A stretch of 36,329 bases of DNA from the IMG/VR virus record IMGVR_UViG_2737471834_000007, one strand, 5' to 3'. Positions 728-31,460 of this stretch are shown one piece after another. Source of the stretch: a virus (Duplodnaviria; Heunggongvirae; Uroviricota; Caudoviricetes). The position numbers were made by a program, and so were the translations under genes. The notes below the pieces were generated by a model. It did no database searches. It saw nothing but the letters and a program-made list of their open reading frames with translations, and had not been told where the DNA came from. Every line of letters starts with the position of its first letter. Within the stretch, counting starts at the first letter, position 1.

Positions 728-1108
728 TTATGAGTTCTGAAATTCTTCTGCACGCCTTTCCAGTTCAGCCATGAAAGATGTTCTGGCTTTTTCGTGAGCA
801 TCGGGGGCCATGATGCTGATGATTTGTATATTGTTATAATCCATCCAGTGCCTGGTATAAACCAGATAGATATTTGAAGTTCTGTCTATCTGGGCCTTGC
901 TTTTCTTCCATGGTGGTTCCGATGGTAGTCTTATGTGTAATTTATATACAAACGAACCACATAGTCTTGCGTTATCTTCCCACTGTCCTTCATTGCCGAA
1001 TCTGTCAGGGAGAACGCCGGTATTTAACCAGTTCTCCAGAGCTTTTCCGTAAATTTTTGCAATATCCTGGTATTCAACATCTTTATGAATACTTACTTTG
1101 CTCGCCAT
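728..1108 (-). CDS. Hypothetical cytoplasmic protein (126 aa), second gene of a two-gene cargo operon
   Basis: Start ATG overlaps the upstream stop by 1 nt (TGATG). No signal peptide. A YKLHIRL...IYLVYTRHW...IQIISI stretch is faintly RelE/ParE-like but not convincing. Confidence 0.5.
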   Translation of the reverse strand: MASKVSIHKDVEYQDIAKIYGKALENWLNTGVLPDRFGNEGQWEDNARLCGSFVYKLHIRLPSEPPWKKSKAQIDRTSNIYLVYTRHWMDYNNIQIISIMAPDAHEKARTSFMAELERRAEEFQNS

Positions 1109-1734
1109 CAGGAAAACTCCGGAGCCGGGAGTCCCATATTTTTATGCTCGGCAATAATCATTGTTTTCACATTTTCGTCAGACAGCGTATTGCCCAGACT
1201 GGTAGTTTTTTCAGGTGCAGTGCTTCGCTCGATGGCGTTGATGGTATCACGAACGATAAATTCACCCTGCGCAATTGCCCGACCAAAACGAACCAGTTTA
1301 TTGCGATAGGCGATTCTTTGCTCAAGACTGTCCGGATACATTTTTGCCAGGTTATCCGGGGCCATTACAATCCTGACAGCCTCTTTAACACGGGTGTGCT
1401 GCCTGAGTGACTCTTCGCATATTTTCGTTATTTTTGCTATGTTGTCAGTAAACAGCGCTCCTTTGCCTCTGTTCTGACGCTCTTCAATGACGGCATTGAG
1501 TGCAGCGCGCATGTTGTTATTCAGCCCGTTAATATATTCAATAGCTTCTTCAAGAGGCAGAAACACCTGGCCGTCATGATGCTCAAATGTAAGCATTGAA
1601 ACTACTCTGGCGTGCGTCCCGGATTCAATAACTGTTGTTGGTAGTATCGTGCTTTTAGCTGGCACCGGAGCCAGTGATGCTGTCAGAGCTGCAGCAATGG
1701 CAGCAATGGCAGCAGACTTTGATTTTTGTTTCAT
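1108..1734 (-). CDS. Predicted secreted/periplasmic protein (208 aa from the ATG at 1734; the track ORF starts at GTG 1746), first gene of the cargo operon
   Basis: N-terminus MKQKSKSAAIAAIAAALTASLAPVPAKS looks like a Sec signal peptide; GGAG 7 nt upstream of the ATG at 1734. No catalytic motif recognised. Confidence 0.55.
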   Translation of the reverse strand: MKQKSKSAAIAAIAAALTASLAPVPAKSTILPTTVIESGTHARVVSMLTFEHHDGQVFLPLEEAIEYINGLNNNMRAALNAVIEERQNRGKGALFTDNIAKITKICEESLRQHTRVKEAVRIVMAPDNLAKMYPDSLEQRIAYRNKLVRFGRAIAQGEFIVRDTINAIERSTAPEKTTSLGNTLSDENVKTMIIAEHKNMGLPAPEFS

Positions 1735-2215
1735 AATGCACTCCACAGGTTGATGTGTTCAGCATATCGCAAATAGCAACTTGCATAAAGAAACGCCACA
1801 TCGGCATCGATCGTTTTACGCGTTTTTTTTCTTGTTGTGATCCTTTTTTCAGTTTTATTTTACCCGTTAATTTTGCGCAGGCCGCGCCGTGTCTGGCTTC
1901 TTTGTCTGATGGTTGTTTGATGCGATCCCTTCGTGATCGTTTTTCGTCTCACGTAAAGTATGAAAACTCTTTTAATATCATGCTGTTTTATTGCTCCAGC
2001 CATTTGTGCGATCGAAAAAATCTCTCTTAAAATTGCAAAAAATTTCAAAGTGTGAAATTTCAGAACTTCGCTTTTCCCCCAGTTACTGCGCTGGCTGGCG
2101 GTCATTTTTGCACGACAGAAAACTGAAAAAGCGTTTCAACACAAAACCCGCGGGTTGGAGGGGGTAGCGCGGTTTACGTGACGTGACACTTTACGTCATG
2201 TCTGGCTGGTTATGT

Positions 2216-2325: not shown

Positions 2326-4065
2326 TCAGGCGATAAGGTCGCGGTATTTTTCCCGCAGGGAGGATGACTGTCTGGCATCACCGGTAAATTCACCACTGTT
2401 GGTGGGTGTGCCTGTGCCAGGATGTGCGTGTGTGGCAGTATGTGTTGCCAGTTGTTCAATGAGATCCAGAATATCAACGAACAACGTCATCAGGTTCAGG
2501 CTGTCGCCACCCTGTGAACCATTTCGGCCTATAAACAGGGTCGGCGCAGAGAGGGAAAGACCACCACTGGCGGTGGTGGTCTGTGTACCGCTGATGTTCT
2601 CTGTGATATTCCCGCTTACTGTGCTGTTAACATTACCGCCGATGGTTTCCTGCCTGTCAGCACTGATGCGGCGTATCTCTGCCTGTAATTCCGCAATAAG
2701 GCTGTTTGCTTTCATCCTGATATCACCGGTGGCCACAATACCGTAATCACCATCAGAACCATGGACGATCTGCCCTGCCATCAGTGAACTCGTCCCGAGT
2801 ACCGTGGTACTGTCTGTGGCCTGTACGGTTGTTGTGCGGGTTGTCGTCCGGCGGCTTTCCTGGTCGCTGGTTATGATTCGGTGTGCAGATTCTTCCCTGA
2901 TTTTCTGGTCCGTTTCCCGGTGCCATGTGCCGTCACGGGTAACCCTCTGAAATACTTCTGCACGCTGTTGCTGTAGCTGCTCGCCAGGCTGGATATCAGG
3001 AAGATTCAGTCCGGATGGGAGTATCTGCCTTATTACCGGTTTATCTGGCCGTCCTTCGATATGCGCGATTTCCACTATCGTTCCGGCTTCCGGATAAGAA
3101 AAACAACCGGCCTCATTTCCGGCCATGGGTACCGGAAGCGGCACAGCAGGATATACAGGCGTGTTGTTGCTATCGTTGCCGTTTTCGTCCAGTAACTGCA
3201 GGTCAACAGCATAACGTGGGCGAAAACTGTCTGCCACATCGCCAAGCGTCGTGGATTCTGTTGGCGAGATAACGCGGGCCAGTCTTGGGCGTAATGTTCC
3301 GTCAGCCAGCTCCGGAAACTGCGATTCTGTCTGACGGCGCAGAGGTGAGCTGGATACGACAGAACCATCCTGGCGAAACCTGTCCCATGTCAGTGTCATG
3401 GTTTCATTATGAATGGCCACACGCGTGATCCGTCCTGCAGGAAGGTTAACGCCGGGGCGCAGAGTCTCTATCAACATGATATCCATACTGTTGCCGGCGC
3501 TGTGCCCCAGTGCATATTCATCAGGAATTTCCGGGATGGTCAGCGATGCAAAGCGTGAGTCACTGGCGCTGCCAACGAATACAGAACCATCCGGCATGGG
3601 ATGCCAGACGTAATCCTGAATGCTGAATATCCTGCCAAGATGATCAAGCAGGCGGGTACCGCTTCCGCTGTGAGTGACGCAGGGTACTGGTGTGGATACA
3701 TAGGCAGATGACGCGGTAATAAACACGATACCGCTCTTTTTTCCGAGATCATCAAGAACATCACGCAGAGTCGGGTGCTGGATGACACACGGAAAGCTGA
3801 AATCCAGTACCGCGGCAGCTTCCCTGATGAACAGACGGCGGGCGCCGTTTTCTGCCGGTTGATCGCGCTCAACGTAACCTGAGAAATAACGCCAGGCCTG
3901 GCCATCACGCCCAAAATCAATCTGAATCATGGCACCGGCCAGCGTGCTGCGCTGATTCGGCAGGGTGACAAAACCTCTTCCTGATGCGTTCAGTGACAGG
4001 ACCAGACTGATGTCTGTTATTTCTGTCTGTTTACCGTTTACCATGCATCTCTGAATAATTTTCAT
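2326..4065 (-). CDS. Baseplate central spike protein (gpV/VgrG-like C-terminal half with a ~330 aa N-terminal extension)
   Basis: AGTIVEIAHIEGRPDKPVIRQILPSG resembles the gpV OB-fold motif; C-terminal ATHTATHAHPGTG (H-x-H) resembles the spike apex of P2 gpV as recalled from memory. Start overlaps the upstream stop. Confidence 0.5.
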   Translation of the reverse strand: MKIIQRCMVNGKQTEITDISLVLSLNASGRGFVTLPNQRSTLAGAMIQIDFGRDGQAWRYFSGYVERDQPAENGARRLFIREAAAVLDFSFPCVIQHPTLRDVLDDLGKKSGIVFITASSAYVSTPVPCVTHSGSGTRLLDHLGRIFSIQDYVWHPMPDGSVFVGSASDSRFASLTIPEIPDEYALGHSAGNSMDIMLIETLRPGVNLPAGRITRVAIHNETMTLTWDRFRQDGSVVSSSPLRRQTESQFPELADGTLRPRLARVISPTESTTLGDVADSFRPRYAVDLQLLDENGNDSNNTPVYPAVPLPVPMAGNEAGCFSYPEAGTIVEIAHIEGRPDKPVIRQILPSGLNLPDIQPGEQLQQQRAEVFQRVTRDGTWHRETDQKIREESAHRIITSDQESRRTTTRTTTVQATDSTTVLGTSSLMAGQIVHGSDGDYGIVATGDIRMKANSLIAELQAEIRRISADRQETIGGNVNSTVSGNITENISGTQTTTASGGLSLSAPTLFIGRNGSQGGDSLNLMTLFVDILDLIEQLATHTATHAHPGTGTPTNSGEFTGDARQSSSLREKYRDLIA

Positions 4066-4637
4066 TATTCACCATCCTTCACGCTGCCAACACCTGTTTT
4101 ATCCAGCCATCCTCCCAGCGTATTATTCACCGCTCCCCAGAATGCGTCCTGAGTATTGATTTGTTCGTTGTCAGACGTTGAACTGGTTCCTGTCTGTGTC
4201 TGCTGGTTAACCCTGGTTTTCTGTTCGCTGCTGCGGGCCTCTTTTTTCTCAGGTACGCTGAGTTTTTCCCTCAGGGTAAATGAGACCTGCCAGTTCATTT
4301 TCCCCTGTTGCTCCGTGACGTCGACACTGCCGGAGAAAACACCCTGTCGCATATTCACCGCTCTGGCAGTAGCGTTGGCAATCCTGTAGCATTTTTTATC
4401 TCCTCCATTGCCCGTGGCTTCGGCCAGTTGAAAAAGGCGGGTCAGTATTTTTTCATCGTTGAAATCAACAATGCCCGTAACCTTCATTTCTTTCGCTTTG
4501 CAGCCTTTCTGGGCGCTGCTGGTACTGGTTGACTGACCTGACATATCCTTATCCGGCAGGCGCAGACTGACGCTGACAGTGATATTGCGTAACAGGATCG
4601 CTTCTCCGTCCAGCGCCAGCACGATGATTTGTGTCAT
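4065..4637 (-). CDS. Hypothetical tail/baseplate-associated protein (190 aa)
   Basis: Translationally coupled to both neighbours (4-nt and 1-nt overlaps); Ser/Thr/Gln-rich C-terminal half; no motif recognised. Confidence 0.45.
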   Translation of the reverse strand: MTQIIVLALDGEAILLRNITVSVSLRLPDKDMSGQSTSTSSAQKGCKAKEMKVTGIVDFNDEKILTRLFQLAEATGNGGDKKCYRIANATARAVNMRQGVFSGSVDVTEQQGKMNWQVSFTLREKLSVPEKKEARSSEQKTRVNQQTQTGTSSTSDNEQINTQDAFWGAVNNTLGGWLDKTGVGSVKDGE

Positions 4638-5392
4638 TTCAGGGCACCTCTCAGCGCGGATAAATCCTCACCTGCAAAGAGCATAATAGTGGTCAGCACC
4701 CGGTCAGGGTGAGGAATGTTTTTTTTCATCATGATTGCGGCCTGCCTGGTATCACCGGAAAAACAGAAACTCCATACCGGGCATGCCCTGTTTTGCGAGT
4801 CCTGCTTTTCTCCGGTTAATCTGTCCATCAGGTTCTGGCGATCTTTTCTGAACTGTGCCAGCGCCTGATCCAGCCCGGAAAAGGACAGCGGAGGAGGGGA
4901 AACGGCTGTGCTGATCAGTTCAGTCTGTGCCAGACTCCTGGCTGTGCTGAGTGACAGGGTGGTGCTTTCCGGAAGTGTTGCCGCTACTTTTGCCGGGATC
5001 TGCATTTTGCTGACGGCCAGCGATAACTGGCTGGCGATCAGCCTGTTCATTCGCTTGATTTCCGGCAAAGGGAATACGTCGGCAAAACGTTTTGTCAGTG
5101 CAAGAAATTCTGAAGCTGAAGTGGCACTGAGCATCATTAGTACCATGTCGCAATCCCGGCTGCCCTCCAGTCTGTGCAGAATGGCATCAATGGCATTTTC
5201 CGGGCTGAGGTAAGCCCCTGAACGGGTGACGTTTCCCACACCTTCCGACCATGGATGGAGACAAAGTTGTGAGCAGTTGATATTCATTGCAGCAGGCTTA
5301 AGAAGACTGCTTTTCCATTCCGCTGGCTGCATATTCATACCATTTATTTCTGATGTGTTGTTGTTTTTTGATGTAATACACAAATTTAACAA
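4634..5392 (-). CDS. Hypothetical protein (up to 252 aa; true start uncertain, candidates at 5338, 5332 and 5287)
   Basis: Track ORF starts at TTG 5392; no candidate start has a clear SD. Stop overlaps the next gene start (ATGA). Confidence 0.4.
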   Translation of the reverse strand: MLNLCITSKNNNTSEINGMNMQPAEWKSSLLKPAAMNINCSQLCLHPWSEGVGNVTRSGAYLSPENAIDAILHRLEGSRDCDMVLMMLSATSASEFLALTKRFADVFPLPEIKRMNRLIASQLSLAVSKMQIPAKVAATLPESTTLSLSTARSLAQTELISTAVSPPPLSFSGLDQALAQFRKDRQNLMDRLTGEKQDSQNRACPVWSFCFSGDTRQAAIMMKKNIPHPDRVLTTIMLFAGEDLSALRGALK

Positions 5393-5494
5393 AGTGTATG
5401 CAAGGCTGTTTAATATGCCATTCTGTAGTTATATGATCCCGGACGACCATAAGGGATACTGCACTGCAGTGTCTTCTCCCTTGGAAAACCTTTT

Positions 5495-5526
5495 CTGCCA
5501 TACATTTGTATGGCAGGCTTTTTTTC
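5495..5526 (+). terminator. Strong hairpin plus T-run oriented for the + strand, in an AT-rich gap inside the - strand tail operon
   Basis: CTGCCATAC-ATTT-GTATGGCAG followed by GCTTTTTTT on the + strand. Confidence 0.4.
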
Positions 5527-5905
5527 AGCAACAGGTTCCCTGCTGCGTGTCGCTGTATTTCCCTTTCCCGAACAACCTTACTGCAAGATACATTAACCGT
5601 CTGCGCCAGCGGGGAACTCCCAGCACCGTCATCGCATCCAGAAATATCCTGTCCGCTTCCGCCTTCGTGCGCAGGGCATTGTCATACAGCCAGTCATGAA
5701 TAATCGCGGCTTTCGCATAACGACCATGCGGCGGGAGCAGTGCCCACAGAAGCCGGGGCACACTGGCAAGGTCCGTCACATATCCCTCCGGAACATAAAT
5801 CACATCATCCGGGTTATCCGTCAGCCAGAATTCAAACGGCTCAACCAGACGCCAGCGGTAATCATCCAGCATCTCCAGAATGGCCGGTGTGGTGAACTTA
5901 CTCAT
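5525..5905 (-). CDS. DUF1353-like phage protein (about 126 aa from the internal Met)
   Basis: GYVTDLASVPR and IHDWLYD motifs resemble the DUF1353 family; the start overlaps the end of the upstream chaperone gene. Confidence 0.5.
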   Translation of the reverse strand: MSKFTTPAILEMLDDYRWRLVEPFEFWLTDNPDDVIYVPEGYVTDLASVPRLLWALLPPHGRYAKAAIIHDWLYDNALRTKAEADRIFLDAMTVLGVPRWRRRLMYLAVRLFGKGKYSDTQQGTCC

Positions 5906-6508
5906 CATCCCCCTCCGGCCAGCCAACAGGATACGCACGAATATCCGGCAGTGCGGTCAACCCTGCCACTTCTTCTTTCATCCGGCGCTGGCGTTCATGG
6001 ATTTTAAACCCCTGCATCACCATCGCCGCATTCATCGCAGTATCCAGTTGTATCAGCTCTTCCGGCGTCAGAGTGACATCCTGATTATCCGCATCCGTCC
6101 AGAAAAAATGCTCAGGCAACAGCCCGTTTCCTGCCACCGCAACTACCGGTGTCAGTCTGGACTGTGAAGCCTTTCCGGCATCCCAGCGATGACCACTGAA
6201 TTCAAAAACAAAACTGCTGTTCTCCTGGCTGTCACGCCAGCGACTGATTTCACCGTATTTCTGATTTCTGGCCTTTTCCAGTATCTCCTCTGTCACCACA
6301 AACGGCGTGACCTCACCCCAGGCCCCTGATATCAGCCCTGACCAGAGCCTTAACCCGAATTCTGTCGGGTCTGAAGCTCTGGCAGTATAAGGTACATATA
6401 CCCGCTGACTGTCATCAGAACGGTCTGCCATGAACACCTCACAGGTAATGCTGCCGTCTTCATTAAAACGGGCATTGCGCACGTCCGCTTCTGAATTCCT
6501 GGTATCCA

Positions 6509-6509
<1 letters not shown>
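5898..6509 (-). CDS. Putative tail fibre assembly/chaperone protein for fibre 2 (203 aa)
   Basis: Immediately follows fibre gene 2 with a 1-nt TAATG overlap; position and size fit a fibre chaperone; ends in GWPEGDDE. Confidence 0.45.
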
Positions 6510-8077
<1,568 letters not shown>

Positions 8078-8096: not shown

Positions 8097-8624
8097 TTAT
8101 TTTGTTTCCGGTACAGCAGGCCAGTTAATTGCCTCAAAGTTATCCTTATTATCAATGTCTGAAATATTCAGAGAATTAAGCTCACGGATATACATCATCC
8201 ACTGAGTGAGTTTAAGCCTGTCATCGTCACTGATTATTCCAAGACTGAGCTCTGTCTGCCAGTCACTGGTAATACTCCTGGCTTCTGACAGTAACCTGTT
8301 GCGTTGTGTTTCAGCCTGTTGCCGGTAATCAACAGGAACCGGTAATATCTCACCATCCCTGTAATACCAGCGAGCTTCAATACAGAACCCTTCAGGAAGT
8401 TCGTCAACCTCCACAATGGAGAAACCTGCCGGATAGAGTCGTGAAGCATCCTCCGCCATGGAGTAAATCACTCCGGTGTCCGGATGAATGCACAATTTAT
8501 ATTTCTTCGTGAATTTATTGACAGAATCATAAAAATCCTGACCATCTTCACTGCAGAAATACTGGATACCCTCACCATAAGGCATGTTTTCAGGGTAATA
8601 GCGTGAAACGTTTCGGAGTTCCAT
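8097..8624 (-). CDS. Tail fibre assembly protein for fibre 1 (about 175 aa from MELRNV)
   Basis: C-terminal LTQWMMYIRELNSLN...INWP resembles the conserved Tfa/gpG tail; AAGGGA SD 7 nt upstream of the ATG at 8624, which lies just past the fibre 1 stop. Confidence 0.65.
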   Translation of the reverse strand: MELRNVSRYYPENMPYGEGIQYFCSEDGQDFYDSVNKFTKKYKLCIHPDTGVIYSMAEDASRLYPAGFSIVEVDELPEGFCIEARWYYRDGEILPVPVDYRQQAETQRNRLLSEARSITSDWQTELSLGIISDDDRLKLTQWMMYIRELNSLNISDIDNKDNFEAINWPAVPETK

Positions 8625-8635
8625 AATGTTGTCCC

Positions 8636-10189
8636 TTAACCGGATATGGTGCGCCATGCACCATTAATATAAATCTGTTTTGCTTTGTAATAGACACCGC
8701 CAATATTATCTGCAGAATGTGAGCCAGTTTCCTGAACGTTAATACCAGAAAGCACACAACCTGCCGGTGCACGGAATGTCCAGGAAATTTCATTACCACC
8801 TGGATTGTGAAAGGTTTCGTTTGTGTACTGTTCGTTCTGTACATAGCGGGCATCAGCTGCAGCCTGCGTCATTCCCGCTGAAATGGTGATATCCTTCGTA
8901 CCATCAAATGCAACACCATTTATTTTTCGTGCGTTCTGTAATTTTGTGGCGCTGCCGGCATTACCGGTTGTGTTCTGGTTGCCCTGGGTATTCACACCCG
9001 GGAGACTGATATCTCCTGAACCATCAAAACTGACGCCGCCGATTTTCCTGCTGTTTTTTAATTTTGTAGCCGTACCTGAATTGCCTGATATATCGGTGAT
9101 TGTAATATCTTCCGACAGTTCCTTACCGTTGACTTTCCTTGTTGACGGAACGCGACGTTTTGCCTCATCCATAGCGTTCTTTACGGCTTTGGGAGTGGCG
9201 GCACGATCTTCCCTGTCACTGTCTGTATCACTGCAATATTGCGCAAATCCCTTTTCGTCCAGCGTGGCGTCAGGGTGATTGCGTGAGCGCACGTGGGCTG
9301 CCAGTGCATCGCTGTTTTCTTCATCAGGTGTCTGTGGACGGACATCCTCAACATGACCGGCAGATAATACTGCCAGTGGTGCAACATAATGTCTGAATCC
9401 GTTATTATCGGTGTACTCTTCAGTTACCGGGCGCGTATTCATATTCCCGGCGTCTGGTTGTCTGGCAGTAAATACAAATACCGTTTTCCAGCAGCCTGAT
9501 ACATGTCCATGCCAGCTGGCATCAATCAGAATGATGTCATTTTCAGAGGCGGTAAGTGTGAAGGGCTCCGTTAACTGAACACGCAGGCCACCGATATAAG
9601 CCACACCGGCACTGATGGTAGCTGTGCTGTTAATGGCATCGTAACTGACATGCAGGCTGTTACCCAGACATGCGGCATCACCATAGTAATCAAAGGCCAG
9701 CAGACGACGCGATTCATCCATTCCTGTCAGTCTGGCAGTAAAATCAATCTGCCAGACGTCAGCGGTGACGTTTACCTGCATGGCTTCGGCTGCCCCTTCG
9801 AATTCCATGGCGAATGTGCGAATCAGGTTATTGCCCTGAATGCCATTGGCGGTCCTGATTTTCTGCTGTAGTGGTGTATGGGCAATCATACACAGTACAT
9901 GGCTTTCTTCGTGATACAGCCCAATCCAGTTATATTCAAAATCACCTGCGGTGGTGTCCAGAATCACGGAAAATGCAACCGTATCAGGTTCAAGCATGCC
10001 GAACTGTGTTACCGGAACGCGGCAGACAATATATTTTTCATCCGGCAGTTCTTCATCCACCGATATCGGTGCACTGATATCCATATCCGGAATGCAGGCA
10101 AAGATAAAAGTGTCCGGTCTGGCCGGTTCGTTGCTGATAAGCTGGTTTGCACACCAGTGCTCATATTGTCGCGTAATTACCGTGCTCAT
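8636..10189 (-). CDS. Tail fibre protein 1 (517 aa)
   Basis: Collar motif SRNHPDATLDEKGFAQ...AATPKAVKNAMDEA matches the P2 gpH/lambda Stf-type conserved region as recalled from memory; two ~36-aa fibre repeats follow; N-terminus shared with fibre 2. Confidence 0.7.
   Translation of the reverse strand: MSTVITRQYEHWCANQLISNEPARPDTFIFACIPDMDISAPISVDEELPDEKYIVCRVPVTQFGMLEPDTVAFSVILDTTAGDFEYNWIGLYHEESHVLCMIAHTPLQQKIRTANGIQGNNLIRTFAMEFEGAAEAMQVNVTADVWQIDFTARLTGMDESRRLLAFDYYGDAACLGNSLHVSYDAINSTATISAGVAYIGGLRVQLTEPFTLTASENDIILIDASWHGHVSGCWKTVFVFTARQPDAGNMNTRPVTEEYTDNNGFRHYVAPLAVLSAGHVEDVRPQTPDEENSDALAAHVRSRNHPDATLDEKGFAQYCSDTDSDREDRAATPKAVKNAMDEAKRRVPSTRKVNGKELSEDITITDISGNSGTATKLKNSRKIGGVSFDGSGDISLPGVNTQGNQNTTGNAGSATKLQNARKINGVAFDGTKDITISAGMTQAAADARYVQNEQYTNETFHNPGGNEISWTFRAPAGCVLSGINVQETGSHSADNIGGVYYKAKQIYINGAWRTISG
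8879..9109 (-). repeat. Tandem ~36-aa tail fibre repeat (two copies) in fibre 1
   Basis: SGNSGTATKLKNSRKIGGVSFDGSGDISLP versus TGNAGSATKLQNARKINGVAFDGTKDITIS. Confidence 0.6.
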
Positions 10190-28786: not shown

Positions 28787-29196
28787 TCCCCGGCAGTTGC
28801 CCGTTGAAACGCGGCACGGTACAGCACAAGAAGGCGCCGGTATTCGTCAATAAAGCCTTCTGCCGTTTTAATTCCTTTCACTGCCACGCTGTGGGTTGTC
28901 ATGTCCAGTACGAGCGCCATTTCTGACGATGACCAGCTGATAACGCTGCTGTCGAGTCCGTTGATGTGGAACAGGCCCAGATTCAGGCTGTGATTCAGGT
29001 CTCTGACGTCAACACGGTAACGGTCATCAACGGTGAAGGAGAAATCACCGGATGTGGCGGCGCTGCTGGCTGCCTGTTTACAGGCGAGGCGGTAATAGTC
29101 GTGCAGATCATTGAGACGGGAAGCGAGGCGTGGATCCACCGCCCACATCCAGTTAAAAAAATCCTGAATATCTGAAAGTCCCTTAACGTTCTTCAT
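28783..29196 (-). CDS. Hypothetical early protein (137 aa)
   Basis: CGGAGG SD; ATGA overlap with the replication gene start. Confidence 0.5.
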   Translation of the reverse strand: MKNVKGLSDIQDFFNWMWAVDPRLASRLNDLHDYYRLACKQAASSAATSGDFSFTVDDRYRVDVRDLNHSLNLGLFHINGLDSSVISWSSSEMALVLDMTTHSVAVKGIKTAEGFIDEYRRLLVLYRAAFQRATAGE

Positions 29197-29264
29197 GTGA
29201 ACCTCCGGTAACAGACGTGCGGAAGCCTCCCGCGCACGGGTGCGGGATGGCTTCAGGATATTGA

Positions 29265-29492
29265 TTAGTGGTGGTATTGCTGGCTGATGAGGTCCTGCAG
29301 CTCCGCGAGATCATCCGCCAGGTAGCTGAAGACTGCCGCGTAATACCCGGCAGCGATACCGCCGTTAAGCCGATGTAATACGTTTGACTGCATGATGAAG
29401 GCGACAGATGCAGCCCGATGGAGTCTGCGGTTGATTTCGGTGCGGATGTGAAGGCGCTCAGCGCGGGCGCGCTGTTGTTTGCGGTTTGCCAT
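29265..29492 (-). CDS. Hypothetical small basic protein (75 aa)
   Basis: GAAGAGG SD upstream of the ATG; Arg-rich N-terminus. Confidence 0.45.
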   Translation of the reverse strand: MANRKQQRARAERLHIRTEINRRLHRAASVAFIMQSNVLHRLNGGIAAGYYAAVFSYLADDLAELQDLISQQYHH

Positions 29493-29780
29493 GGTATGGC
29501 CTCTTCGTTTGTAAGTTTGGGAAACTCACCATCCAGAGGTTCCAAGCTCGGGGTGGCGAGACGTACGGGGTTGGAACTACCGGAAAACGAAGAAACCGGC
29601 CCGACCAGAGTCGGCCCCGTACGCCCCGCCATAATTTGGGTGCGAAAACGGCGTGGCGATACGGTACGCACAAAAAAACCGCTGGCGCGGCTGTGCGCTT
29701 CGTTTGTCGGCGGGGTTCCAATCCCGGCACCCGTTTTATGAGGTGCAGCGGGAATGTAACCCGACAGATTGCGGCATGGC

Positions 29781-29840
29781 AAGCGGTTTTTTTGTGTGTG
29801 CATGATGATCACTCAGTCCGGTAACAGTTCACGGAGCACG
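29781..29840. repeat. Direct repeat copy A (~57-60 bp) at the 3' end of the methyltransferase gene
   Basis: About 85% identical to 30876-30932 by hand alignment (AAGCGGTTTTT..GTGTGTGCATG...ACTCAGTCCGGTA.CAGTTC). Confidence 0.6.
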
Positions 29841-30828
29841 GCGTCAGCTGTTGTTCTGTGGTGTAAGAGGTAAACATCGCGCTGTAAGTTGTATCTCCCG
29901 TCACCGTGCCGCAGTCCGGACAGTAGCCGCCGCCATGGCGACCACAGGCGGCGCACTGTCTCAGGGTGGCGATAACCTCCGGTGCTGGTTTTCGGGTTTT
30001 TGCGCCAACGCTTCGAGGTGCCTGGATGCGGTTCATCCGGTAGCCCTGATAAATGCGCCGGGTTTCCGGTGTGTCGGAGCCGGAAATGGTTATGCTGGTC
30101 ATTCCACCTGTTTCCTGTGAAAGACGGTCAAGCGCTGCTCTCAGGCGAACGTGTTCGTCCTTCGTGAAGGGGTTTTCGTAGGCGGTGAAATTGTCCCGGC
30201 CACTGAATGGCAGGTAAGGGGGATCGCAGTACACGCAAAGCGTACTACCTATGCTGAACAGGTGACTGGCAGTGTTCAGCGTTTTCTGAAAATCGCCATG
30301 AACAAGCAGTGTTCTGGTGCTGTTTGCCTTGTCTGCAAATGCGCGGATTTCCCGTTCAGGGAAGTAGGGAGCCCGGTAGCCACCGAATGGGACATTAAAA
30401 TCCCCTTTTTCATTCACCCGGTACAGGCCATTAAAGCAGTGCCTGTTGAGGTATAAAAACATGGCGGCCAGCCGTAATTCGCGACGGTCGCTTATTCCCG
30501 TGCTCAGGAATGCATGATTCTCTGCATTAAAGGTGTTACGGATAGCGAGATAGTCAGTCCTGTTGTTGTGCTCCAGGAACAGGCCTTTTGCTTCGTTGAT
30601 CAGACTGTCGGTGTTGTCCCGTGCTGCCCGACAGAAATTAATCAGCGCACCATTGGAATCACCCGGGATGTAGCGGCTGTAACTGGTGTTCATGAATACC
30701 GATGCGCCACCCACGAACGGCTCAACCAGGCAGTCAGCTTCTGGCAGGTGCGCCTTCAGTGTGTTCATGATGCGGCTTTTCCCGCCCACCCATTTCAGCG
30801 GTGTGCCGGATAACAGTTCTTTGCTCAT
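29809..30828 (-). CDS. Dam-family N6-adenine DNA methyltransferase (339 aa), orphan
   Basis: AdoMet-binding motif (EPFVGGASVF) N-terminal and catalytic DPPY C-terminal (alpha-class order); Cys-rich C-terminal tail; no restriction endonuclease partner seen. Confidence 0.8.
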   Translation of the reverse strand: MSKELLSGTPLKWVGGKSRIMNTLKAHLPEADCLVEPFVGGASVFMNTSYSRYIPGDSNGALINFCRAARDNTDSLINEAKGLFLEHNNRTDYLAIRNTFNAENHAFLSTGISDRRELRLAAMFLYLNRHCFNGLYRVNEKGDFNVPFGGYRAPYFPEREIRAFADKANSTRTLLVHGDFQKTLNTASHLFSIGSTLCVYCDPPYLPFSGRDNFTAYENPFTKDEHVRLRAALDRLSQETGGMTSITISGSDTPETRRIYQGYRMNRIQAPRSVGAKTRKPAPEVIATLRQCAACGRHGGGYCPDCGTVTGDTTYSAMFTSYTTEQQLTPCSVNCYRTE

Positions 30829-30896
30829 AACGCGGCCTCTTTGTTACAGGTTTCGTGTGCCAACAAATCCCATGAAAGCGGTTTTTGTGTGTGCAT
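30825..30896 (-). CDS. Candidate upstream leader ORF (23 codons) coupled to the methyltransferase start
   Basis: ATG at 30896; its TGA overlaps the methyltransferase ATG (ATGA); lies inside repeat copy B. Confidence 0.25.
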   Translation of the reverse strand: MHTQKPLSWDLLAHETCNKEAAL

Positions 30897-30932
30897 GGCG
30901 ATTACTCAGTCCGGTAGCAGTTCGTACAGCAC
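30876..30932. repeat. Direct repeat copy B, spanning the 3' end of the HTH gene and the methyltransferase leader
   Basis: See copy A. Confidence 0.6.
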
Positions 30933-31460
30933 AATGTCGTCGACAGTGCGGCGGCGACTGTAAAGAAAATATGCTGTGTTAGTGGTCGCTTTTATTTGCA
31001 GTGTGTGATTGATGTGTTTTGCTATCGCGGCGAATGTCATACACTGTTCATCACGTAGTTCTGTTACCAGTTCCACCAGGCGATCGCTGTATCTGGTCAG
31101 GTGGTGCAGATCTCCGCATTTCTGCAGTCTGTAACCACGTTTACTCAGGTGTTCCTGTACTGTGCGACGGGTACATCCCACCATGACTGCCATTTCCTGC
31201 GCTGTTCTGGTGTGACGGTTTCTGATGAGAAAATTGATTTCTTCTCTGCTCAGCGTTTTTCTCTTGCGACCAATTAATCCACGATCACGTAAAACACGAA
31301 TTCTGTGCATAACTGCGCTGCGGGTGCGTTGAATTCGTTCAGCCATCTGGTATGTGCTGTTTTCCTGATAAAGCGAGGTAAGCATCTCGTCTTCCTGCCG
31401 TGTCCATGGTTTCACGTGCGCAGGGGCTTTGCCTGGTATCCCCATTGGTTGAAGTATCAT
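30906..31460 (-). CDS. Putative DNA-binding protein with helix-turn-helix-like segments (184 aa)
   Basis: ACGGAGGT SD; basic segments of HTH character (STYQMAERIQRTRSAVMHRIRVL; RTAQEMAVMVGCTRRTVQEHL). Confidence 0.5.
   Translation of the reverse strand: MILQPMGIPGKAPAHVKPWTRQEDEMLTSLYQENSTYQMAERIQRTRSAVMHRIRVLRDRGLIGRKRKTLSREEINFLIRNRHTRTAQEMAVMVGCTRRTVQEHLSKRGYRLQKCGDLHHLTRYSDRLVELVTELRDEQCMTFAAIAKHINHTLQIKATTNTAYFLYSRRRTVDDIVLYELLPD

Follow-up and report, generated by a model that had tools for sequence, protein, structure and literature searches.

A predicted hub-spike fusion and its partner genes at the end of the late operon of an HP1-type prophage

The window analysed here is the whole 36,329-nucleotide stretch of viral DNA (Caudoviricetes) held as IMG/VR record IMGVR_UViG_2737471834_000007, which to judge from its sequence is a complete temperate phage (prophage) of the HP1 subgroup of Peduoviridae. 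Four open reading frames (ORFs) of its minus strand, 2326–4065 (579 amino acids), 4065–4637 (190 amino acids), 4634–5392 (252 amino acids) and 5525–5938 (137 amino acids), are placed after both tail-fibre modules, as a first-pass annotation had stated, and their strong family matches show that all four are real. The genes between 2326 and 5332, called the trio below, encode a predicted fusion of tail hub and spike, a protein with a tail-tube fold and a homologue of HP1 orf33. They very probably form the central-hub module of an HP1-type contractile tail, which occupies its usual place: behind the fibres, as the three genes that close the late operon. The fourth gene encodes a DUF1353 protein. 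All tail genes and protein domains described below lie on the minus strand.

The hub-spike gene and its two partners

The gene at 2326–4065 closes the late operon, immediately behind the orf33-like and orf34-like genes, and encodes a 579-residue homologue of HP1 orf35. The protein matches PHROG 2258 (“baseplate protein”) from end to end, residues 1–579 aligning with profile positions 1–544 (E 5e-213), and in tblastn its whole length aligns with HP1 at 34% identity (E 1e-99). An AlphaFold2 monomer model built on 30 homologues displays a gp27-like hub fold of tandem tube-like beta-barrel domains, with a predicted local distance difference test score (pLDDT) of about 85–90 for residues 1–230. By this model the protein is a hub-spike fusion, in which the hub domain, of the gp27, P2 gpD and Mu gp44 type, would comprise residues 1 to about 255 (3301–4065). 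The suggestion in the first-pass annotation that the N-terminal part is a hub fused to the spike is thus borne out at the level of the model, with an extension ahead of the OB fold of about 255 residues instead of the ~330 claimed.

Comparison with solved structures found similarity to both hub and spike proteins. The closest fold matches are the MuSo2 43-kDa tail protein (3cdd, score 20.4), the Mu gp44 hub (1wru, 19.0) and a Neisseria homologue (3d37, 18.7), and the hub gp41 of E217 (16.6) and the pyocin R2 hub (6u5h_C, 15.8) are matched as well. The fused hub-spike proteins matched are those of AlgoCIS (7aef_q, 18.0), the contractile injection system (CIS) of S. coelicolor (9gtr_q, 17.8), the PVC central spike (9qgm, 16.2), Afp8 (14.4) and VgrG1 (12.1), while the matches to proteins that are spikes only, Mu gp45 (7.7) and P1 Gp5 (7.3), score lower. 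The Pfam family Phage_GPD gave no match to the protein at E <= 0.1, and the protein is hub-like by its modelled fold, not a member of the Phage_GPD sequence family.

The OB-fold-like motif described earlier is present in the form of weak matches below the cut-offs. The region assigned to it covers residues about 256–360 (2986–3300, boundaries approximate), where the NCBIfam VgrG domain aligns with residues 259–363 (E 1e-5, score 24 versus a cut-off of 122 bits) and Pfam Phage_base_V with residues 310–345 (19.6 bits, cut-off 23.8); the predicted model places five strands at residues 261–348. It is followed by a Thr/Ser/Gly-rich, probably beta-helical spike shaft (residues about 361–520, 2506–2985), assigned from its composition (T+S+G+N+Q fraction 0.47) and from weak profile matches, including that of Pfam Gp5_trimer_C to residues 463–501 (18.1 bits versus a cut-off of 30.9). 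The sequence search of solved structures gave weak VgrG and gp5 matches only; with phmmer, the VgrG of 8qja was matched over residues 293–505 (E 0.006).

The C-terminal apex region (2326–2505) contains the only HxH of the protein, H546-A547-H548 at 2422–2430, which lies within the interval 2420–2445 where an apex-like motif had been reported. Both histidines are invariant in 30 homologues, and the surrounding THAHPG aligns with THTHRG of HP1, SHTHPN of SI7 and THKHPG of P2 gpV. In P2 gpV, an Fe ion is caged by the histidines of three HxH copies, in the apex that attacks the membrane (bioRxiv 10.1101/2023.02.25.529910).

The 190-residue protein (4065–4637) is a homologue of HP1 orf34, with which it shares 50% identity. 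It belongs to Pfam PF25759 (HP1_ORF34, “baseplate complex protein”), scoring 194 bits against a cut-off of 27 (E 2e-57), with residues 2–177 aligned to positions 2–178 of the 180 in the profile. Its AlphaFold2 model, built on 40 homologues, is confident for the core of residues 1–125, while a loop at about 30–49 and the C-terminal tail are disordered. The model has a tail-tube fold (a beta-sandwich, a helix and a long hairpin) and is closest to tube initiators and “ripcords”, the class for which pyocin R2 PA0626, Pa193 gp38/39, Pam3 gp17 and the N-terminal domain of Mu gp43 were compared. On this structural likeness it is proposed that the protein works like a tube initiator or “ripcord” on the hub. 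The sequence search of solved structures gave no match to it. Membership of the gpU family (PF06995) was considered and dropped, PF06995 being unmatched and similarity to gpU undetected.

The third member of the trio is a 232-residue homologue of HP1 orf33 (4634–5332). It matches PHROG 1677, a family of unknown function (E 4e-41), and BLASTP aligns it with HP1 orf33 (E 1e-24) and SI7 gp22 (E 5e-32). The family has no Pfam model, and searches of Pfam, NCBIfam, PADLOC and the PDB brought no match to the protein, also when the family profile is used. An exhaustive search with the profile, covering 1.84 billion representative proteins, returned only 262 relatives, nearly all of 230–300 residues; no Pfam domain was detected in ten scanned members, the longest ones included, and a Pfam search of 21 members at E <= 5 produced only scattered chance matches.

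Profile comparisons brought no relation between the orf33-like protein and the 190-residue family, gpU or Mu gp43. With hhalign, against single-sequence targets and hence at low sensitivity, the 190-residue protein reached E 0.35 with P2 gpU, the 579-residue protein E 0.095 with P2 gpD (probability 0.6%) and no significant value with gpV, and the orf33-like protein nothing significant with the 190-residue family, P2 gpU or Mu gp43.

The orf33-like protein is proposed here to be a low-copy partner in the hub module, conserved and translationally coupled. The least supported step of the scheme is the assignment of this protein as an adaptor between hub and tape measure, which might occupy the slot that a LysM “glue” protein fills in other simple tails. 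A serious competing explanation, with somewhat less than an even chance, is that it stays out of the virion and acts as an assembly chaperone of the hub/tape-measure complex, or has an unrelated late function. The absence of a recognisable structural fold or domain would agree with this, assembly-only factors are often encoded beside hub genes in tail modules, and the presence of the homologue gp46 in virions of the Pseudoalteromonas phage ACA1 was recorded by mass spectrometry from only 2 spectra at 6% coverage (PMC10612066 supplement). That detection, weak as it is, is nevertheless positive. The position of the gene is also strictly kept: it always stands directly upstream of the orf34-like gene, and is coupled to it by an ATGA overlap in all HP1-type phages examined, as it is here.

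The first-pass annotation had all four genes translationally coupled. This holds for the two junctions within the trio, where the 252-residue frame meets the 190-residue gene in an ATGA overlap and the latter meets the 579-residue gene in a TAATG overlap, each preceded by a purine-rich Shine–Dalgarno-like stretch. It does not hold between the DUF1353 gene and the orf33-like gene, which are separated by about 190 nucleotides with a stable hairpin, counted from the DUF1353 stop (5525) to the likely orf33-like start (ATG 5332). The orf33-like frame is open to a TTG at 5392, and its start is most likely M21, the ATG at 5332, which gives the 232-residue protein and is where the homologues begin.

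The DUF1353 gene and the fibre-tip cassette

The DUF1353 frame is open to 5938, and the start at that end is most likely over-called; the real one would be one of the tandem ATGs behind GGAGGGGG. The frame used here is 5525–5908 (127 residues), and the stop of the DUF4376 gene overlaps its start region. The protein covers the full 91-position profile of Pfam PF07087 (DUF1353) with 114 bits against a cut-off of 22.5 (E 2e-33). The family is widespread, with 287 phage records, one of which is labelled “structural protein”. A sequence search of solved structures gave no match beyond a succinate-dehydrogenase hit, taken as chance.

The only characterised DUF1353 member is TtaP from the typhoid-toxin islet of Salmonella Typhi, a phospholipase A2 with the catalytic residues H70, D71 and D85 (PMC11525133). 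TtaP has 125 residues versus 127 here, and its catalytic residues H, D and D are equivalently placed: H71, D72 and D86 of the frame 5525–5908 correspond to it by the published positions (no direct alignment) and are invariant in six diverse phage DUF1353 proteins of 34–83% identity. The protein is therefore a candidate TtaP-family phospholipase A2 on sequence grounds. TtaP lies in a toxin islet, the copy in the window at the end of a phage fibre cassette.

The alternative that the DUF1353 protein is a tail-fibre assembly chaperone and not an enzyme is unlikely. PHROG 1158 and many phage records do carry the label “tail assembly chaperone”, and the gene always follows a fibre gene and a DUF4376 gene. 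The label appears to be positional; the chaperone slots are already filled by the DUF4376 and Caudo_TAP proteins. The invariance of H71, D72 and D86 among six divergent phage members would also be unexpected for a chaperone, and the one characterised relative is a phospholipase.

The DUF1353 gene had earlier been counted in the spike block, an assignment rejected here. A segment of about 1.9 kb (5364–7247), containing the C-terminal half of fibre 2, DUF4376, DUF1353 and the hairpin, shares 94–96% of its nucleotides with lambdoid prophages of E. coli chromosomes; the matching parts are the 3′ ends of their side-tail-fibre operons, in which gpJ is followed by an stf-like fibre, DUF4376 and DUF1353, where the operon ends. 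When the block was searched as nucleotides against 5,426 complete E. coli genomes, its DUF1353/DUF4376 end alone was matched. The segment is a fibre-tip cassette exchanged horizontally between unrelated prophage types, and the DUF1353 gene a passenger that came with it, outside the hub block.

The two complete fibre modules are arranged in tandem, each with its own assembly protein. Fibres 1 and 2 share an N-terminal docking domain of about 220 residues at 29% identity, and fibre 2 contains collagen-like G-x-y repeats (Pfam Collagen, residues 308–366). Because the segment shared with lambdoid prophages covers the C-terminal half of fibre 2 while its docking domain resembles that of fibre 1, fibre 2 is a chimera of an HP1/P2-type docking domain and a lambdoid tip.

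The non-coding gap between the DUF1353 gene and the trio (5333–5524) is shared with a lambdoid prophage in its portion 5364–5524. Its hairpin at 5494–5517 has a 9-bp stem (–16.8 kcal/mol for the centroid, z –3.6) and is followed by a T-run on the plus (antisense) strand only; it is probably a relic of the end of the donor operon. The P2-type late-promoter dyad (TGT-N12-ACA) is absent from the gap, its count over the window being that of chance, and no sigma-70-like site was found for the trio on the sense strand.

Position of the module after the fibres

The block had been regarded as out of place on the premise that hub and spike genes precede the fibres in Mu- and P2-type tails. The premise is correct for Mu, and in P2 it applies to the spike gpV only. 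The P2 order is V-W-J-I-H-G ... FI-FII-E-T-U-D, in which gpU and the hub gpD come after H and G as the last tail genes. The HP1-type order is a permutation of these P2 blocks, with the sheath/tube/tape-measure block first, W-J-I-fibre second, and the U-like and fused D and V-like genes at the end.

A megablast search with the block gave no match among phage genomes, and homology had to be traced through the proteins. A tblastn search with the 579-residue protein returned 75 phage records. These include Salmonella SI7 and ESSI-2-like Escherichia and Cronobacter phages (43–48% identity, full length), Haemophilus HP1 and HP2 (34% over 100% of the query), Yersinia vB_YenM_324, Aeromonas phiO18P, Pasteurella F108, Vibrio K139 and kappa, and Pseudomonas and Pseudoalteromonas phages. 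The copy in the window is a divergent one: the best match to the hub-spike protein from a cultured phage is 48% identical, while the nearest named NCBI protein is 71% identical. A literature search on HP1 orf35 as a baseplate protein and on DUF2586/DUF2590 found essentially nothing.

The placement of the trio is invariant in HP1-type phages. In HP1 the order is orf29 (J), orf30 (I), orf31 (fibre), orf32 (assembly), orf33, orf34 and orf35, and it recurs in SI7 (gp18–gp24), in K139 (orf35–orf39, followed by a terminator) and in ACA1 (gp46–gp49). The trio is homologous to HP1 orf33–35 (26%, 50% and 34% identity, respectively), K139 orf37–39 and SI7 gp22–24, and these three phages also share with it the location at the end of the late operon after a fibre and an assembly protein, the hub-spike fusion and the gene overlaps. 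They have one fibre module and no DUF1353 gene, whereas the window has in addition fibre 2, DUF4376, DUF1353 and the hairpin gap of about 190 nucleotides. An E. coli prophage, E7-1N7 (76–79% nucleotide identity), has nearly the same arrangement as the window: a fibre, an assembly protein, a second fibre (in pseudogene pieces), DUF4376, DUF1353, an orf33-like gene, a “baseplate complex protein” and an orf35-like gene.

It is therefore very improbable that the core was rearranged in this one element, or that the block is an auxiliary or second injection module. The hub and spike genes of Mu do lie on the other side of the fibres, and a foreign cassette has been inserted or exchanged directly upstream of the trio; yet the series fibre, assembly protein, orf33, orf34, orf35 is the same in HP1, K139, SI7, ACA1 and E. 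coli E7-1N7, and the P2 tail cluster likewise ends with gpU and gpD. As for an auxiliary role, the genes at 2326–5332 are baseplate-core genes and the sole candidate core, no other hub, spike or tube-initiator gene having been found in the window.

Comparison with better-studied tails shows how the same parts can be divided among genes. ACA1 gp46–gp49 form the same module in the same order, but the hub gp48 (234 residues) and the spike gp49 (317 residues) are encoded by separate genes, which are fused here, in HP1 and in K139. By HHpred, the ACA1 authors related these proteins to HP1 orf33–35 and to P2 gpU(?), gpD and gpV, flagging the gpU link as uncertain (PMC10612066), and their mass spectrometry found gp46, gp48 and gp49 in virions (PMC10612066 supplement). 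P2 has the same functional set, in which a small protein follows the tape measure and the others are a hub and a spike whose HxH apex binds Fe, and the motif T-H-x-H-P-G aligns. In P2, however, the spike gene is separate and heads the V-W-J-I-H-G operon, and U and D directly follow the tape measure; the protein here extends about 30 residues beyond HxH and has no significant sequence similarity to its P2 counterparts. In Mu, gp43 (DNA circularisation protein N), the hub gp44 and the spike gp45 are separate, lie between the tape-measure and wedge genes upstream of the fibres, and gp43 has 495 residues as opposed to 190 here.

Hub and spike are also fused in VgrG, Afp8, Pvc8 and AlgoCIS Alg8. 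VgrG and extracellular CIS systems usually cap the spike with a PAAR protein, whereas here the gpV-like HxH apex is built in and there is no PAAR gene; the context is that of a complete temperate phage, and scores against VgrG models are far below the cut-offs. That the 579-residue protein is a VgrG of a type VI secretion system, or an extracellular CIS spike from a non-phage system abutting the prophage, has next to no probability, as the weak VgrG sequence matches, the fold matches to VgrG, Afp8 and Pvc8 and the UniRef label of one homologue (“Actin cross-linking toxin VgrG1”) are set against full-length homology to virion genes of the plaque-forming HP1, K139, SI7 and phiO18P, the TAATG overlap with the upstream phage gene, the VgrG score of 24 versus 122 bits, and a search that brought up no TssB/C/E/F/G/K, Hcp or effector domain.

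The late region and the proposed central hub

The late region is HP1-like throughout, with the Pfam families HP1_Orf24 (tube), DUF2586 (sheath), DUF2590, Baseplate_J, Tail_P2_I and HP1_ORF34. On the minus strand it begins with gpL-, gpR- and gpS-like head and tail completion proteins, followed by the DUF2586 sheath (16284–17477) and the HP1_Orf24 tube (15832–16287). Next come the lysis genes (about 15078–15828), encoding a holin and an M15 endolysin, the tail assembly chaperone (14700–14984), the tape measure (12335–14506), DUF2590 (11995–12363), which in SI7 and the E. coli relative has the position of P2 gpW, the gpJ-like Baseplate_J protein (10818–12002) and the gpI-like Tail_P2_I protein (10195–10821), all assigned with Pfam. 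The tail gene order of 10195–17477 is that of HP1 and SI7. The final part, assigned with Pfam and PHROG, comprises fibre 1 (8636–10189) with its Caudo_TAP assembly protein (8097–8657) and the collagen-like fibre 2 (6509–8077) with DUF4376 (5898–6509), after which stand DUF1353 and the trio.

Between the chaperone gene and the tape measure there is an ORF of 49 residues within 14509–14984 (minus strand), at the place where P2-type phages have a frameshifted extension of the chaperone. Among 30 window proteins scanned there was no competing hub, spike or LysM gene, and the scanned ORFs of the tail region likewise included no LysM or gpX-like protein and no other hub or spike.

Beyond the hub-spike gene lies cargo. 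A YafO-family toxin gene (728–1108, minus strand) overlaps the end of a 212-residue ORF (1108–1746, minus strand), whose product is hydrophobic at its N-terminus and matches nothing in Pfam, NCBIfam or PADLOC; it may be an unusual antitoxin partner of the toxin. In E. coli E7-1N7 the YafO-family toxin gene has a gene annotated as “SufA” upstream of it, and two genes further on there is a Hok/Gef gene.

The right part of the window encodes a GPA replication protein, a Dam methylase, Cox and an integrase. The early region contains a 51-nucleotide direct repeat of 84% identity (29789–29839 and 30882–30932, 1093 nucleotides apart), one copy at the junction of the ORFs 29183–29812 and 29809–30828 and the other at the 5′ end of the ORF 30906–31460; the two may be duplicated regulatory or gene-start sequences. 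Direct repeats of the att type were sought at the ends of the window and none were found.

If solved baseplates are taken as a guide, the centre of this one would consist of the 579-residue protein in three copies. Their N-terminal domains, similar to gp27 and Mu gp44, would assemble into a pseudo-hexameric hub ring, while the C-terminal parts would wind around one another to give an OB-fold collar and a beta-helical needle, with a metal-cage apex of HxH motifs at its tip. The 190-residue protein is envisaged as stacked on the hub ring, where it would serve as tube initiator or “ripcord” and nucleate the tube around the tape measure. The DUF2590, gpJ-like and gpI-like proteins would make up the wedges that bear the two fibre types, and contraction of the sheath would drive the spike through the outer membrane.

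Several points weigh against this picture. The mechanism is drawn wholly from analogy. The Pfam and NCBIfam matches of the OB fold and the beta-helix are all under curated cut-offs, and the spike half of the AlphaFold2 model is poor, with a pLDDT of 30–60 for residues about 350–520, which is to be expected from monomer prediction of an intertwined trimer. Beyond HxH the model has helices, and the C-terminus exceeds that of gpV by about 30 residues, so the apex may differ from the gpV apex. There is no significant profile match to P2 gpD, gpV or gpU, and for that reason the equivalence with P2 rests on fold, the HxH motif, synteny and the published HHpred results, of which that for gpU is uncertain. 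The orf34 homologue of ACA1 was undetected in virions by mass spectrometry, and the role given to the orf33-like protein, which has no detectable domain and an ACA1 homologue with those 2 spectra only, is a guess. Finally, the hairpin at 5494–5517 could lower read-through into the trio, for which no promoter was found.

The HP1 sequence has been available for decades, its genome paper dating from 1996. The spike block of HP1-type phages is itself already known, in that its families are called baseplate proteins in Pfam and PHROGs, and the gpD-gpV fusion in HP1 orf35 was noted in 2023. What is gained is annotation: four genes of a common enterobacterial prophage type, so far “hypothetical” or vaguely named, are read as a hub-spike fusion, a tube initiator, an orf33-family hub partner and a DUF1353 candidate phospholipase.

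A bolder reading, which has a rather low probability, is that the DUF1353 protein, encoded at the end of exchangeable fibre cassettes in both lambdoid and HP1-type prophages, is an active phospholipase A2 that acts on the bacterial envelope, either in the virion, where it would help the tail through the outer membrane, or as a late lysis or exclusion factor, or else that the orf33 family is a new kind of hub component in place of the LysM “glue” protein of other simple contractile tails. If the DUF1353 protein does act in this way, it would be an accessory that attacks lipids and is inherited together with receptor specificity. The interest that remains thus lies in the orf33 family, which is present in all HP1-type tails and matches no domain, and in a phospholipase-family gene that moves with fibre tips between unrelated prophage types.

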